A DNA stretch of 28,927 bases from a virus (Duplodnaviria; Heunggongvirae; Uroviricota; Caudoviricetes): the IMG/VR virus record IMGVR_UViG_3300046474_000142. The stretch is one strand, 5' to 3'. The notes beneath the pieces are model-generated. The model had not been told where the DNA came from. It saw only the letters and a program-made list of their open reading frames with translations, and made no database searches. Each line of letters starts with the position of its first letter. The first letter of the stretch is position 1. Shown piece by piece: positions 3,716-18,447 of this stretch. A program made the position numbers and the translations under genes.

Positions 3716-4102
3716 TTAAATTAAAGTAGCGTTGAAGCTGAAATCGATCCGTTTGATAGTTAGCTTATCAGACGCCTTAACCCCCGGAGATGCAAACGCC
3801 AACGTTCCGCTAGCTACGCTTACGCCGGCAGTTACGCCAGACAACGTGATACCTAGTCGCAGATTAGCTAGAGCGCTTGCACTGCCGAGAGCGGTCCCAG
3901 TAATTGATGCTCCGATAACCAAGTTGCCATTGGCAAGTCCTGCGCCTATAGCGCTACCTGCCAAGTCTGCGCTGAAACTCATTACGCTGGAAGCAGTACT
4001 AACTCCGACTGAAGCGCCTGACATTCCTGTAGTGGTGGGAGCGCCCTGCGTGCCGGGGCTATCGCCAAGTGCGGTTGCACCGAATGTGTTATATCCAAAC
4101 AT
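3716..4102 (-). CDS. Gly/Ala/Ser-rich putative virion protein
   Basis: MFGYNTFG start, roughly 22-aa repeats of L.G...G.....G.L; operon context. Confidence 0.55.
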   Translation of the reverse strand: MFGYNTFGATALGDSPGTQGAPTTTGMSGASVGVSTASSVMSFSADLAGSAIGAGLANGNLVIGASITGTALGSASALANLRLGITLSGVTAGVSVASGTLAFASPGVKASDKLTIKRIDFSFNATLI

Positions 4103-4111
4103 GGTGCGTCC

Positions 4112-5185
4112 TTATGGGTGAATACTAAATTGAAAAATCTTACCTTCACCACTTTGCACAACGTACGCAAACTTCCCATCTGCTGATGTGAGTACCCCGT
4201 ATGGCCCTGCGTTCGACGCGGCGATAGCAGAAGCGCTAGGGTTTGACGGAACCAAGAATGGAACCTTCTTGATCGGCAAGCCATTTGTATTGATTGCTAG
4301 GTCGCGGGTAAGCTGTGCGATGTAGTTGCCATCGCTTCCCGGAATGTAGATGCTCTTGCCATCCGGTGTAATGGCGATACCGTACGGCCCATTAATTCCG
4401 CTGATTGTGCCTACCGCCGACAGAGCGCCGGTTCCTGTATCCCGCGTGAAAATGCCGATGTTCGCTGCGGTATCATTCGCCACATACAGATTCTTACCAT
4501 CGGGAGAGACTACAGCTACGGCGGGCCAACCGGCACTTGGGACAGTTGCCGCCCCCATCTGGTTGAGCAAGCCGGTCCCGGTGTCGCGGGTGTACTGCGA
4601 AATCGAGCCGCCGTTATTGCAGGAGTAGACGCTAGCACCATCCGGTGAAATCGTAATGCCCTGCTGCGAAGTTACGCCGGGTACTGTTGCCGGACTTAGT
4701 GCTACCAGTGCGCCCGTACCTGCATCGCGGGAGAACTGCGATACGAAGGCGTTATTACCGTGGGACACATAAACGTGCGTATTGTTGGTGTCAGGACTCA
4801 GCACAATACCGAACGGCTGTGTTCCACAAACCATAGCAGTCTGCTTAGTTAGCAGGCCGGTTCCTGTATCGCGGGAGTAAATGCCGATATCACTATTGCT
4901 AAAGTTTGGTGCGTAGACAAACTTGCCGTCATTACTAATAGCGACGAAGCGTGGGTTACGCCCTGACCCGCCTGCGCTCACAGAGGCGGGCGTCAGAGGG
5001 TTAAGCTGGCCTGTGTTTACATCACGCGAATACTGATAAATCGAATTGTTGCCAGAGGCAGCGACGTAGGCGAAATCGCCATTTGGTGAGATAACCATGT
5101 ACCACGGCTGTGTTCCTGCTGCTACAGACGTACCAATTGGCGATAGCGTGCCGGTTGCTGCGCTACCGCGTCTACGGCGCGTCAT
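4112..5185 (-). CDS. Beta-propeller protein (lactonase/YncE-like), putative virion appendage or receptor-binding protein
   Basis: About 7 repeats of SPDG..vYv...I.QY.RD..TG.L; start at 5185 gives an ATGA overlap with the upstream stop. Confidence 0.75.
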   Translation of the reverse strand: MTRRRRGSAATGTLSPIGTSVAAGTQPWYMVISPNGDFAYVAASGNNSIYQYSRDVNTGQLNPLTPASVSAGGSGRNPRFVAISNDGKFVYAPNFSNSDIGIYSRDTGTGLLTKQTAMVCGTQPFGIVLSPDTNNTHVYVSHGNNAFVSQFSRDAGTGALVALSPATVPGVTSQQGITISPDGASVYSCNNGGSISQYTRDTGTGLLNQMGAATVPSAGWPAVAVVSPDGKNLYVANDTAANIGIFTRDTGTGALSAVGTISGINGPYGIAITPDGKSIYIPGSDGNYIAQLTRDLAINTNGLPIKKVPFLVPSNPSASAIAASNAGPYGVLTSADGKFAYVVQSGEGKIFQFSIHP

Positions 5186-7098: not shown

Positions 7099-7106
7099 AT
7101 ATTCTT

Positions 7107-7196
7107 TGGCGGAAGACTGACATCCCGACTGCCATACGCTCGACGCGTACCAAAGGCTTAGCAAGCCCCGCCAGCGCCCCGGCTGGTTAATCTTCC
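7107..7196 (-). tRNA. trnS: tRNA-Ser(GCT), non-canonical T loop
   Basis: GGAAGAT acceptor, loop TTGCTAA, long variable arm, T loop GTCGGGA, CCA. Confidence 0.8.
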
Positions 7197-7253
7197 TTTC
7201 ATTAGAATAAGCATTTTCAGCATTTGCTGAAACACTGCTTTGTAGTGAAAGTC

Positions 7254-7331: not shown

Positions 7332-7405
7332 TGGACGCGATAGCGGTATTCTAAACCGCCTACGAAGCTTTGCAGGCAACTGCCTAGTCACTCGGCCATA
7401 TCGCG
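7332..7405 (-). tRNA. trnC: tRNA-Cys(GCA), atypical
   Basis: CGCGATA/TATCGCG, U73, loop CTGCAAA; T loop TTAGAAT, weak anticodon stem. Confidence 0.75.
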
Positions 7406-7430: not shown

Positions 7431-7501
7431 TGGTGGAGCATAACGGTATCGAACCGTTCCTACCGCAGTGCAAGTGCAGCGTCAAGCCCTCAAGATGCCC
7501 C
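7431..7501 (-). tRNA. trnA: tRNA-Ala(TGC), reduced D arm
   Basis: G3:U70 identity pair, loop CTTGCAC, CCA; only 15 nt between acceptor and anticodon stems. Confidence 0.75.
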
Positions 7502-7664: not shown

Positions 7665-7670
7665 ATTGTT

Positions 7671-7762
7671 TGGTGCGCACAGATGGAATTGCACCACCGC
7701 CCGGTCGAGCCGACTACAGTTTTACAGACTGCGCTGACTTATCTAACATTCAGCTTGTACGC
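7671..7762 (-). tRNA. trnY: tRNA-Tyr(GTA)
   Basis: Loop CTGTAAA, long variable arm, CCA. Confidence 0.85.
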
Positions 7763-7771
7763 ATTGTTACT

Positions 7772-8057: not shown

Positions 8058-8065
8058 ATTGAGCT

Positions 8066-9149: not shown

Positions 9150-9228
9150 TGGCTCCGTCCGCTGGAATCGAACCAGCCTAGTCATTGGTTAACAGCCAAG
9201 TCCATGCGCCATGCTCGGATTCGACGGA
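9150..9228 (-). tRNA. trnN: tRNA-Asn(GTT)
   Basis: Loop CTGTTAA, TTCGATT, G73, CCA. Confidence 0.88.
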
Positions 9229-9264: not shown

Positions 9265-9340
9265 TGGTTGCGGATATAGGATTTGCACCTATGACGCACG
9301 GCTTATGAGGCCGCTCTTCTGACTACTGAATTAATCCGCA
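9265..9340 (-). tRNA. trnM: tRNA with CAT anticodon (Met, fMet or Ile2 unresolved)
   Basis: Loop CTCATAA, CCA; lacks the three consecutive G-C pairs of initiators. Confidence 0.8.
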
Positions 9341-9396: not shown

Positions 9397-9801
9397 TCAC
9401 GCCGCTTCTGCGATTGCTCTTTCGCCAGCCGGTTTGTAAATCCAACCAAACTGCCTAGCAGTGCGGCGCTTGTGGCAGTTAGCACACCGAACGTCGCACT
9501 TATTAATCTCTTCTTGGAGCCTAGCGAGCGTTACATTGTTTCGTACCATGCGGGACAAAGAATCTGTCTTATCGCTTTGGTGATCGAACTCAAGTACCAC
9601 TGGGTCGCTTTCTCCGCAGTCCACGCAAGGGTGGCTGCTAAGGTATGTGGCAAGAAACTCGCGTCTCGCATTTTGCTGCTCTGCTTGACACTGTTTGCAG
9701 TGTCCAGACTTTTTCGTTGTACCGTAGAATTGATCCTTCGGCTTCCGTGTCTTACAACACGAACACAACTTATCGTCCAGAATCGGCCTTCCCATACCCA
9801 T
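9397..9801 (-). CDS. Zn-finger HNH endonuclease
   Basis: CxxC..CxxC then CVDCG...LEFDH...CDVRCANCH; start reassigned to MGMGRP at 9801 (AAGGAG RBS) because the longer ORF overlaps RNA elements. Confidence 0.8.
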   Translation of the reverse strand: MGMGRPILDDKLCSCCKTRKPKDQFYGTTKKSGHCKQCQAEQQNARREFLATYLSSHPCVDCGESDPVVLEFDHQSDKTDSLSRMVRNNVTLARLQEEINKCDVRCANCHKRRTARQFGWIYKPAGERAIAEAA

Positions 9802-9820
9802 GTAACTCTCCTTAACATCC

Positions 9821-9941
9821 CGCATACGTTCTTCAGCGGCGGATTCTCCTACGTACGTTAGGCCGGTCGTCTGCTGAATAGGCGTGGAATTGACGCCTCG
9901 TTTTAGGTCTGCTACCATCGTTGGGTAGCCTTTCGTATGCG
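9821..9941 (-). ncRNA. Multibranch RNA candidate D (between tRNA-like RNA and HNH)
   Basis: CGCATACG/CGTATGCG closing stem; GCTACC/GGTAGC, AGGCGT/ACGCCT, TTCAGC/GCTGAA and CCTA/TAGG helices. Confidence 0.55.
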
Positions 9942-9942
9942 C

Positions 9943-10067
9943 CGAGAACTGAGGGGATCGAACCCCCGACCTTCTTGCCAGTAGCAATGGTACGGTACGT
10001 TTCCGCACCAACGTGTGAACGTCTTCACCAAAACCAACAAGCTGCTCTACCGCTGAGCTAAGTTCCC
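9943..10067 (-). ncRNA. tRNA-like RNA with a 60-nt branched domain replacing the anticodon loop, no encoded CCA
   Basis: GGGAACT/AGTTCTC acceptor, GCTC-AGCGGTA-GAGC D arm, CTTG/CAAG stem, GGGGG-TTCGATC-CCCTC T arm; insert at 9978-10037. Confidence 0.8.
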
Positions 10068-10105
10068 ACTGAAATCTTTCGTAGCTAATTTCGCTACGTA
10101 CTGCT

Positions 10106-10144
10106 ATCATACAACATGACTTGTGTTTTGTCAAGTTTTGTGCA
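10106..10144 (-). promoter_or_regulatory. sigma70 promoter driving the tRNA-like RNA and downstream tRNAs
   Basis: TTGACA-17-TATGAT, preceded by TGCACAAAAC. Confidence 0.8.
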
Positions 10145-17232: not shown

Positions 17233-18447
17233 ATGCAATTGAAGACTACTGCACACCAAGTCATTAAAGATGAAGGTTCTGCACCTATCAAGATTTGGAC
17301 GAAAGACGTTGAAGACTCTGCCATGCTTCAGTTGAAAAACATCGCCCGTCTTCCGTTTATTGCGAAGGAAGGTATTGCTGTCATGCCGGACGTACACAGC
17401 GGGATCGGCTCTACTGTTGGCAGCGTTGTAGCTACGGAGAAGGCCATAGTTCCCGCGATGGTGGGCGTCGATTTGGGTTGCGGAATGGTGGCTACGCGCC
17501 TGTCGCTGAAAATGAGCCAGTTGCCGGATTCGCTGGCGAAGATTCGTAGCGCTATCGAAGCCGCTGTGCCGATGGGAACTGGCGGGGAGCACAAGAACGA
17601 CAGGTACTACTACGATAAGGTACGCGACTGGGCGAAAATCCCTGACGCAGTTCAGGTCGTTTTCAAGGGCGACGAAGGAAAGGCTGCACTGAAGGCTGGT
17701 AAGCAGCTCGGTACGCTCGGCTCTGGCAACCATTTCATCGAAATCTGCGGCGACGAGAACGATGATGTCTGGGTTATGCTGCACTCTGGCTCCCGTGGCA
17801 TCGGCAACATGATCGGTACGTACTACATCAACAAGGGCAAGGAGCTGATGGAACAGTTCCACATCACGCTACCGGACGGCGATCTGGCCTACCTGCCGCA
17901 AGGTACTGACCTGTTCGATGACTACGTAGCAGCCGTCCAATGGGCGCAAGACTACGCGATGGAAAACCGTAAGGCGATGCTGCAAGCTGTGCTGGATGTG
18001 CTCCGCAAGGAAATCACCGTCCCGTTCGGCATCACCGAAGAGGCGATCAACTGCCATCACAACTACGTAGTGAAGGAGAAGCATTTTGGAAAAGACCTGT
18101 GGATTACCCGCAAAGGTGCTATCAAGGCTGGTGTTGACGACCTCGGCATCATCCCTTCCGCGATGGGCCAGACCAGCTTCATCGTAAGGGGCAAAGGTAA
18201 CAAGGAGTCCTACTGTTCATGCTCCCACGGCTCCGGTCGTAAGATGTCACGAACGAAGGCTAAGCAGCAGTTCACTGTTGCCGACCTCATCGCACAGACG
18301 CAGGGCGTCGAGTGTCGCAAGGATAGCGCTGTGCTGGACGAGATTCCGTCGAGCTACAAGGACATCGAGACGGTGATGAAGAATCAAGAGTCGCTGGTGG
18401 AAGTCGTACACCGACTGAAAGCCGTTTTGTGCTGTAAGGGGGCGTAA
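17233..18447 (+). CDS. rtcB: RtcB RNA ligase
   Basis: MPDVHSG, VDLGCG, GNHFIE, HSGSRG, HHNY, SHGSGR, DEIPSSYK motifs. Confidence 0.96.
   Translation: MQLKTTAHQVIKDEGSAPIKIWTKDVEDSAMLQLKNIARLPFIAKEGIAVMPDVHSGIGSTVGSVVATEKAIVPAMVGVDLGCGMVATRLSLKMSQLPDSLAKIRSAIEAAVPMGTGGEHKNDRYYYDKVRDWAKIPDAVQVVFKGDEGKAALKAGKQLGTLGSGNHFIEICGDENDDVWVMLHSGSRGIGNMIGTYYINKGKELMEQFHITLPDGDLAYLPQGTDLFDDYVAAVQWAQDYAMENRKAMLQAVLDVLRKEITVPFGITEEAINCHHNYVVKEKHFGKDLWITRKGAIKAGVDDLGIIPSAMGQTSFIVRGKGNKESYCSCSHGSGRKMSRTKAKQQFTVADLIAQTQGVECRKDSAVLDEIPSSYKDIETVMKNQESLVEVVHRLKAVLCCKGA

Follow-up and report, generated by a model that had tools for sequence, protein, structure and literature searches.

Introduction

Group I introns are found in the anticodon loops of bacterial and phage tRNA genes, their core being a P1–P9 ribozyme that usually takes up 200 nt or more, and in collaborative homing an ORF-less intron is paired with an adjacent free-standing endonuclease, as in the case of psbA in cyanophages. 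To our knowledge, bacteria and their viruses are taught as having only self-splicing tRNA introns. The protein-spliced bulge-helix-bulge intron of archaea and eukaryotes displays, at its splice sites, two 3-nt bulges around a 4-bp helix and can occupy non-canonical positions, for example 29/30. Free-standing HNH homing endonucleases within phage tRNA clusters have T5- and T4-type precedents, and tRNA architecture also serves as the scaffold of other RNAs: tmRNA, YrlA, the Ponchon-Dardel tRNA scaffold and the stable RNAs C and D of T4 are examples of this.

For phage tRNA genes, non-group-I "enigmatic introns" have been described in Lak megaphages, in a study stating that phage tRNA introns had not been reported previously (Devoto et al. 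2019, Nat Microbiol, PMC6784885). A literature search returned no later mechanistic paper on short phage tRNA inserts, which have been mentioned in print only once and in passing. Here we describe a tRNA-like gene, the anticodon arm of which is enlarged, in a 28,927-nt stretch of viral DNA (IMG/VR record IMGVR_UViG_3300046474_000142), referred to as the window. A prior sequence-only reading had proposed that this gene is either an uncleavable tRNA mimic or decoy, or a tRNA with a protein-spliced intron ligated by the phage RtcB; its remark that the latter would be unprecedented in bacteria does not hold, given the published Lak phage tRNA introns (PMC6784885).

Results

Genome context

The window belongs to a tailed bacteriophage and contains a cluster of 17 tRNA genes. 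Among its protein genes are those for a Mu-like portal, a T4-type large terminase (TerL), a tail-fibre-like protein, a resolvase, an HD-domain protein, an RtcB ligase and, in addition to the endonuclease described below, three more homing endonucleases (two HNH, one GIY-YIG). The TerL protein shares 40% identity with that of the ~88-kb Pseudomonas KPP10-like myoviruses, and the closest cultured phages of the window infect Proteobacteria. An archaeal virus was ruled out on the basis of these cultured relatives (by TerL and RtcB), and since the nearest cultured phages infect Proteobacteria, an archaeal host supplying a splicing endonuclease was set aside.

Several tRNA genes in the window and in its relatives deviate from the standard form. 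The genes for Asn(GTT) at 9150–9228, Ala(TGC) at 7431–7501 and Cys(GCA) at 7335–7405 (minus strand) are non-canonical and are missed by ARAGORN in default mode; all three were recovered by Rfam or once the ARAGORN threshold was lowered. Loops resembling those of Tyr and Ser(GCU) tRNAs were seen by eye in the gaps at 7665–7771 and 7099–7253. In relatives of the window, tRNA-Lys(UUU), tRNA-Thr(UGU) and tRNA-Asn(GUU) genes of 86–88 nt display class II-style variable arms, which is unusual for those specificities, with normal-length versions present in other relatives:

L002:5259–5346 and L003:7024–7111: long-armed tRNA-Lys
L002:3321–3407 and L003:3308–3393: long-armed tRNA-Thr
L001:4063–4149 and L003:3897–3983: long-armed tRNA-Asn

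A complete tRNA body encloses a branched 60-nt domain

The Rfam tRNA model RF00005 aligns to positions 9943–10067 on the minus strand with 44.9 bits (E 1e-6 window-wide; gathering score 29), covering all 71 model positions (1–71) and bypassing 57 nt in the anticodon loop. The element is composed of the following parts:

9943–10067, minus strand: tRNA-like gene (Rfam RF00005, full length); discriminator G at 9943; no CCA
10061–10067 paired with 9944–9950, minus strand: acceptor stem, 7 bp with one G·U
10044–10058, minus strand: D arm, 4-bp D stem and 7-nt loop
10038–10042 (GCUUG) and 9973–9977 (CAAGA), minus strand: anticodon-stem strands, with 60 nt in between
9978–10037, minus strand: insert domain, consisting of a stem extension, hairpin 1 (10015–10028) and hairpin 2 (9988–10010)
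9951–9967, minus strand: T arm, 5-bp T stem and UUCGAUC loop

Both the Rfam match and direct reading confirm the canonical tRNA body with 60 nt between the anticodon-stem strands that had first been noticed in the letters: the acceptor, D and T arms and the tertiary-contact positions of the cloverleaf are all present, and the standard 7-nt loop (U33 and a suitable purine 37) closed by a 5-bp anticodon stem is absent, 60 nt lying between the stem strands. In the minimum free energy (MFE) fold, the anticodon stem is lengthened to 9 bp, including three G·U pairs, and ends in a three-way junction from which hairpin 1 (GUGAA/UUCAC stem, GACG loop) and hairpin 2 (8-bp stem, AAACGUA loop) emerge; the extended stem branching into two hairpins that had been proposed was thus reproduced. 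The isolated arm has an MFE of -23.2 kcal/mol vs -16.6 +/- 2.8 kcal/mol for shuffled sequences (z -2.3; 6/200 shuffles equally good): the folding excess is real, yet modest and not overwhelming.

The element is also the only tRNA body without an encoded CCA, in line with the initial observation: a CCA is present in each of the 16 other tRNA-type genes of the window (17 in total), and GCGC follows the element instead. ARAGORN, the use of which with the intron option had been suggested as a check, detects the element in this mode only and calls it as Ser(ACU), placing an intron of 53 nt at 31/32, an unusual position; as TTG is repeated at both ends of the insert, placement of the junction is ambiguous and can range from 28/29 to 31/32. 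The insert of 53–60 nt is, as had been judged, too short for a group I intron and gave no RF00028 match at E<=10; neither a group I intron nor a ribozyme nor any other Rfam family was found at E<=10 in positions 9900–10110. Covariance models of hammerhead, twister, pistol, hatchet and HDV-like ribozymes gave no match at E<=10 with permissive filters, and no tmRNA, YrlA or other known tRNA-like family in Rfam matched the element.

Identity of the tRNA body

Exact matches in IMG/VR to the 5' acceptor strand and D arm of the element comprised three tRNA-Asn(GUU), one tRNA-Val, one tRNA-Phe and one tRNA with a UUA anticodon, whilst a phage tRNA-Asn in L295 has both acceptor strands identical to those of the element, displays G73 and is likewise CCA-less. 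G73 is an Asn identity element in the E. coli identity rules. Judged by these matches, the body is of Asn type and not of Lys type. The resemblance of the 5' half to tRNA-Lys that had been suggested was not recovered, with Lys absent among the exact 5'-half matches in IMG/VR, and a Lys identity was ruled out by the Asn, Val, Phe and UUA matches together with the acceptor stem and G73 shared with L295. Lys is indeed missing from the cluster, as had been stated: tRNA-Lys(UUU) lies between Leu(CAA) and His in all three relatives described below, and the window exhibits an 8-nt gap only (8058–8065) at this place. Nothing connects the element to this missing tRNA-Lys. The element as a replacement for a missing tRNA-Asn was ruled out as well, with an Asn(GTT) gene present in the window at about 9150–9228. 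A class I body with G73 is mismatched to Ser or Thr identity, and genes for Thr, Asn and Ser are already present in the window.

Excision would restore only atypical anticodon loops

As splicing options we considered all single deletions after which an anticodon arm of 17 nt remains. The restorable arms display the loops CU-ACU-GG (junction 28/29 to 31/32), UU-ACU-GG, UU-GCU-GG and UU-GGU-GG, which agrees with the earlier prediction that excision could yield only ACU, GCU or GGU anticodons (for single excisions, a 7-nt loop, U33 and R37). All restored arms exhibit a G27·A43 mismatch, with the stem being 4/5 paired, and every restorable loop of the element leaves U36-G37-G38. In order to place these loops, they can be set beside the 574 distinct ordinary U36 tRNAs in the examined loci: A37 is present in 560 and G37 in 9 of these, and GG at positions 37–38 in none. 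tRNAs reading A-starting codons generally have a modified A37, and the observed counts (560/574 with A37) agree with this rule. A usable spliced tRNA, as the intron proposal had implied, was therefore not borne out, given loops with U36-G37-G38 only (0/574 U36 tRNAs) and the G27·A43 mismatch, and the element is probably non-decoding.

In the predicted fold both would-be loop segments are locked into the 9-bp stem, and an alternative fold in which the 3'-proximal loop is free, with an additional arm next to it, is 12.8 kcal/mol costlier than the extended stem. This argument from a free loop is weak because members of the class of interrupted tRNA genes described below vary widely in predicted loop accessibility: the anticodon accessibility of the element (0.42) lies within the range of the class members (0.20–0.96) and is not discriminating. 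No bulge-helix-bulge was present in the predicted arm, in which the junctions fall within the continuous 9-bp helix, and a Pfam scan of the 29-kb window recognised no splicing endonuclease, RNA endonuclease or archease among the 30 ORFs scanned.

An HNH cassette absent from close relatives

Three IMG/VR contigs have terminases 70–91% identical to that of the window and share its tRNA gene order. For two of these (L001 and L003; TerL 88–91% identical), the gap between tRNA-Pro and tRNA-Met is 153 and 66 nt vs 807 nt in the window. The alignment with the relatives runs through tRNA-Pro and the promoter, after which L001 goes directly to a ~85-nt leader and tRNA-Met. Similarity to L001/L003 stops at about 10090–10095 and the right junction lies at about 9421, with L001 homology restarting within the last ~24 nt of the HNH ORF, which represent native leader sequence. 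The ~670 extra nt of the window (about 9421–10092), not present in L001/L003, comprise a leader, the tRNA-like gene, a spacer and the HNH ORF, so that the region reads as follows in the direction of transcription:

10106–10134, minus strand: sigma-70-type promoter, TTGACA-17-TATGAT, 11/12 consensus; conserved in L001 and L003
10068–10092, minus strand: left cassette end with short leader, from the alignment with L001/L003
9943–10067, minus strand: tRNA-like gene
9821–9942, minus strand: structured spacer of 122 nt, closed by an 8-bp stem and containing three hairpins; the loops of two hairpins are 7 nt long
9397–9801, minus strand: free-standing HNH homing endonuclease gene (phrog_2255, E 1e-31)
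9265–9340, minus strand: resident tRNA-Met, directly 3' of the cassette (ARAGORN, Rfam); follows the promoter directly in relatives

In the relatives, the promoter is predicted from the alignment to drive tRNA-Met directly. In the window no minus-strand terminator was found between the element and the HNH gene, and co-transcription of the element, the HNH gene and tRNA-Met is likely. The spacer at 9821–9942 folds with an MFE of -38.4 vs -27.7 +/- 3.4 for shuffles (z -3.2; 0/200 equally good) and may represent the 5' UTR of the HNH gene or be partly coding (ATG at 9918). The HNH motif CxxC...DH...N...CxxCH, with its metal-binding and catalytic residues, is intact and conserved in the alignments. 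The HNH frame is open through the element (245 aa); this protein-coding reading of the element was rejected, since the HNH alignments extend only weakly beyond residue 112 in the upstream direction and in two cases run into a preceding tandem HNH copy. By blastn the element is absent from the full records of the relatives G001–G003, and none of their tRNA matches exceeds 91 nt. The locus thus combines a presence/absence polymorphism with an intact HNH motif, as is the case for free-standing homing-endonuclease cassettes. Within the HNH coding sequence, two stretches show complementarity to the 3' portion of the arm of the element (9719–9737 vs 9980–9998, 19 nt, 79%; 9648–9661 vs 9967–9980, 14 nt, 86%), and chance is possible for both.

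Homologs of the phrog_2255 HNH gene were collected from viral contigs, metagenomes and bacterial genomes (n=240): a tRNA gene lies within 2.5–3 kb in 212/240 of these loci, with a same-strand tRNA <=300 nt upstream in 81/240 and <=300 nt downstream in 127/240. The order tRNA-HNH-tRNA is the normal habitat of this HNH family. Loci next to tRNAs include chromosomes and MAGs of many bacterial phyla, and tandem HNH copies are present in L234, L245 and L265. No closer relative of the HNH gene was found above about 67% identity in the viral, metagenome and genome collections.

The element is a singleton in the searches made

No homolog of the element was found by blastn against 50,697 phage records, and no exact 27-mer of it matched in IMG/VR; blastn-short over all HNH-homolog loci (viral, metagenome and genome collections) revealed nothing homologous to either the element or its insert, pattern scans for both were negative, and a covariance model of the arm run over about 2.4 Mb gave nothing below E 0.4. 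The insert motifs ACAGCAA and GTTACTT are absent from the element. It thus appears as a singleton in the searches made, leaving no homologs to compare for conservation or covariation. A one-off insertion, which the sequence-only reading had named as the outcome that would speak against its proposal, is in effect what we found: relatives are without the whole gene and no homolog was detected.

A wider class of interrupted phage tRNA genes

A pattern screen of IMG/VR for a common D arm, 63–93 nt and a T arm identified at least 117 loci. Fully paired acceptor and T stems were present in 60 of the 119 matches listed, on at least 58 viral contigs, with inserts of 40–65 nt. About 20 of the listed genes regain a unique perfect anticodon arm only by removal after position 28 or 29, which lies in the 5' strand of the anticodon stem, their anticodon types being Asn, Lys, Ile, Cys, Gln, Pro, Arg and Ser; in other listed genes the insert is located inside the loop. 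One insert family, consisting of a hairpin and ACAGCAA, has at least 23 distinct members in which the stem sequences differ and pairing is always kept, and because of this these inserts are selected as RNA. A second group (L022, L300-type and L303) comprises tRNA-Asn(GUU) genes with G73 and 47–61-nt inserts at 35/36. The loci of these and of a third insert family are:

L117:6304–6877, L098:710–1367, L143:56–563 and about 20 more (L096–L212): ACAGCAA family
L022:1317–1440 and 2183–2316, L300:4817–4940 (complement), L303:4518–4652 (complement): Asn group with inserts at 35/36
L235:275–415, 2772–2903 and 4044–4181: third insert family, in three tRNA bodies with encoded ACCA, beside an HNH homolog

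Inserts of the ACAGCAA family are 42–55 nt long, consist of an A/U-rich lead, one hairpin, ACAGCAA and a tail, are placed after 28 or 29 and occur in a wide variety of phage tRNAs, a single cluster often having several genes with such an insert. The L300 gene has identical copies in L302, L304 and L305; the bodies of the two L022 genes differ and their insert, which contains a T-loop-like hairpin, is nearly identical. The insert type shared by the L235 genes reads CAGCTC.CGCACTC ... GAGCACACAAGC.

There is no Rfam family for any of these insert types. Homing endonucleases were not enriched near interrupted tRNAs, with 3/58 vs 3/59 among the matches listed (five query endonucleases). The element displays the architecture of the class, namely a full tRNA body with a 40–65-nt insert in the anticodon arm inside a phage tRNA cluster; it differs from it in giving no canonical arm on excision (5/5 stem and a loop such as CU-GUU-AA) and in having no recurrent insert.

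RtcB and interrupted tRNA genes

The ligase invoked by the intron proposal is encoded at some distance from the element:

17233–18447, plus strand: phage RtcB RNA ligase (PF01139, E 1e-118), 7 kb from the element

It is context only here. The closest RtcB to that of the window, with 65% identity, is from Bordetella phage PHB04, which encodes this ligase together with three ordinary tRNAs. The complete relative G001 has RtcB and no interrupted tRNA, and G002 (98% complete) has neither. From this distribution RtcB is older than the element in the lineage of the window. RtcB was found in 705 phage records. Among the pattern-scan matches listed, it is present in 6/44 contigs with interrupted tRNAs vs 1/48 controls, and when only contigs that are >=90% complete are taken, in 5/16 vs 1/13; this enrichment is mild at most, and 11/16 complete phages with interrupted tRNAs among these matches are without RtcB. 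A tRNA intron ligated by RtcB was thus not borne out, with G001 and PHB04 having RtcB without an interrupted tRNA and 11/16 complete phages (matches listed) being RtcB-less. The case of the element weakens the idea that phage RtcB exists for the splicing of interrupted tRNAs.

Discussion

The most likely reading, which we hold with middling confidence, is that a mobile HNH cassette brought the element in as a passenger of foreign, tRNA-derived origin, which is probably 5'-processed like a tRNA and does not decode. The ~670-nt cassette would have landed between an internal tRNA-operon promoter and tRNA-Met, and the element, the HNH gene and tRNA-Met would now be transcribed together from the conserved promoter. 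Since the acceptor/T-arm half is intact, RNase P could cleave at G1 of the element, whilst the RNA would not be decoding because no simple excision yields a loop used by working tRNAs. When an HNH endonuclease spreads through the repair of double-strand breaks, co-transfer of an adjacent donor tRNA gene is to be expected, and carriage of such a gene is suggested by the phrog_2255 endonucleases adjoining tRNA genes; a foreign donor would explain why the element alone is without an encoded CCA, and a sole CCA-less gene in an otherwise CCA-encoding cluster fits this origin. The insert may first have interrupted the HNH target site in the tRNA gene of the donor. Several points speak against a passenger: the pristine body (44.9 bits in spite of the insert) and the stability of the arm (z -2.3) could reflect selection for function instead of recent arrival; neither the donor lineage nor an uninterrupted allele was found, leaving hitch-hiking without a direct witness; perfect arms are restored in other interrupted genes, and by analogy with these the element may be excised in a non-standard manner; and interrupted tRNAs show no general excess of neighbouring homing endonucleases (3/58 vs 3/59, matches listed).

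A selected, non-decoding tRNA mimic is a tentative alternative, in which the tRNA body would provide stability, RNase P processing and recognition by proteins, and the enlarged arm would be either an uncleavable decoy for anticodon nucleases and tRNA-targeting defence or the active part on a natural scaffold. The intactness of the body at all tertiary-contact positions, the stable arm, the position directly behind a strong promoter, the sequestration of both candidate loop segments in the predicted fold and the effort that this phage puts into supplying and repairing tRNAs (16 tRNAs and RtcB) are consistent with such a role, and the tRNA cluster of phage T4 encodes stable RNAs without known function. 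Against a mimic, the element is a singleton for which neither conservation nor covariation was seen, it has no match to YrlA, tmRNA or another tRNA-like family, its close relatives, among them a complete phage with RtcB, do without such a gene, and it arrived with a selfish element, for which no function need be invoked. We consider it unlikely that the element is a genuine intron-containing tRNA, in which a host or phage endonuclease would cut twice and RtcB would join the halves to give an ACU, GCU or GGU anticodon. In its favour, removal of the insert restores perfect arms in many phage tRNA genes interrupted by 40–65 nt, Lak phage tRNA introns have been published (PMC6784885), the removal point of the element after 28–31 is the commonest geometry of the class, and RtcB is encoded 7 kb away and is somewhat more frequent with interrupted tRNAs (6/44 vs 1/48 controls, matches listed). 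These points have to be set against the U36-G37-G38 of all restorable loops (0/574 U36 tRNAs), the G27·A43 mismatch of the restored stem, a class I body with G73 unsuited to Ser or Thr in a window already with Thr, Asn and Ser genes, the absence of a bulge-helix-bulge, the bacterial host, 30 ORFs in which no splicing endonuclease was recognised, and an RtcB that predates the element and is lacking in 11/16 complete phages with interrupted tRNAs (matches listed).

That the element is a cis-acting part of the HNH mRNA, which together with the 122-nt structured region would set the 5' end (through an RNase P cut), the stability or the translation of this message, seems quite improbable to us: the element is followed directly by the structured spacer (z -3.2) and this by the HNH gene, with no terminator in between, and a third of the HNH homologs have a same-strand tRNA <=300 nt upstream, but ordinary tRNAs would serve this purpose, the 60-nt arm is left unexplained and the arrangement is not conserved in the HNH homolog loci. 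More improbable still is a collaborative-homing pair, with the ORF-less 53-nt insert interrupting the HNH target in a tRNA gene and a bacterial or phage endonuclease excising it from the RNA before RtcB reseals the tRNA; if true, tRNAs would be spliced without a ribozyme in bacteria or their viruses.

It is clear that phage tRNA genes are commonly interrupted by short inserts that are not ribozymes, with at least 58 contigs and one family with compensatory changes. To these the element adds an interrupted gene travelling inside a homing-endonuclease cassette, and one whose anticodon is not restorable, which would point either to decay after transfer or to use as a tRNA-shaped RNA instead of a decoder.

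The element can be compared with several known systems. Like group I introns and collaborative homing, it combines an interruption in the anticodon region with an endonuclease gene next door and presence/absence between close relatives, whereas its insert of 53–60 nt is several-fold shorter, and the relatives are without the whole gene, with no uninterrupted allele. With archaeal and eukaryal tRNA introns it shares the small size, an insert that pairs with loop nucleotides and extends the stem, the availability of an RtcB-type ligase and possible junction positions within the anticodon stem; unlike these, it is without bulges, has a bacterial host and lies in a window in which no splicing endonuclease was found. 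The resemblance to tRNA-scaffolded RNAs lies in an acceptor/T-arm module joined to a non-tRNA domain that replaces the anticodon region, although the element matches neither tmRNA nor YrlA and its arm, being that of a singleton, is without conservation. As for free-standing HNH endonucleases of tRNA clusters, the HNH gene is located between tRNAs and is absent from close relatives, but here a tRNA-like gene whose anticodon arm is enlarged forms part of the cassette as well; proximity to a homing endonuclease gene is not general among interrupted tRNAs. The Lak and other interrupted phage tRNA genes share with the element a short structured insert in the anticodon arm, without an Rfam family and in a bacterial virus, that is removable with a possible 28/29 junction. 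In the interrupted class canonical loops are restored (CUGUUAA, CUUUUAA) and inserts recur, whereas the element exhibits two hairpins rather than one, only xxU-GG loops, a 4/5 stem and no common motifs: it belongs to a known, nearly unstudied kind, as a variant.
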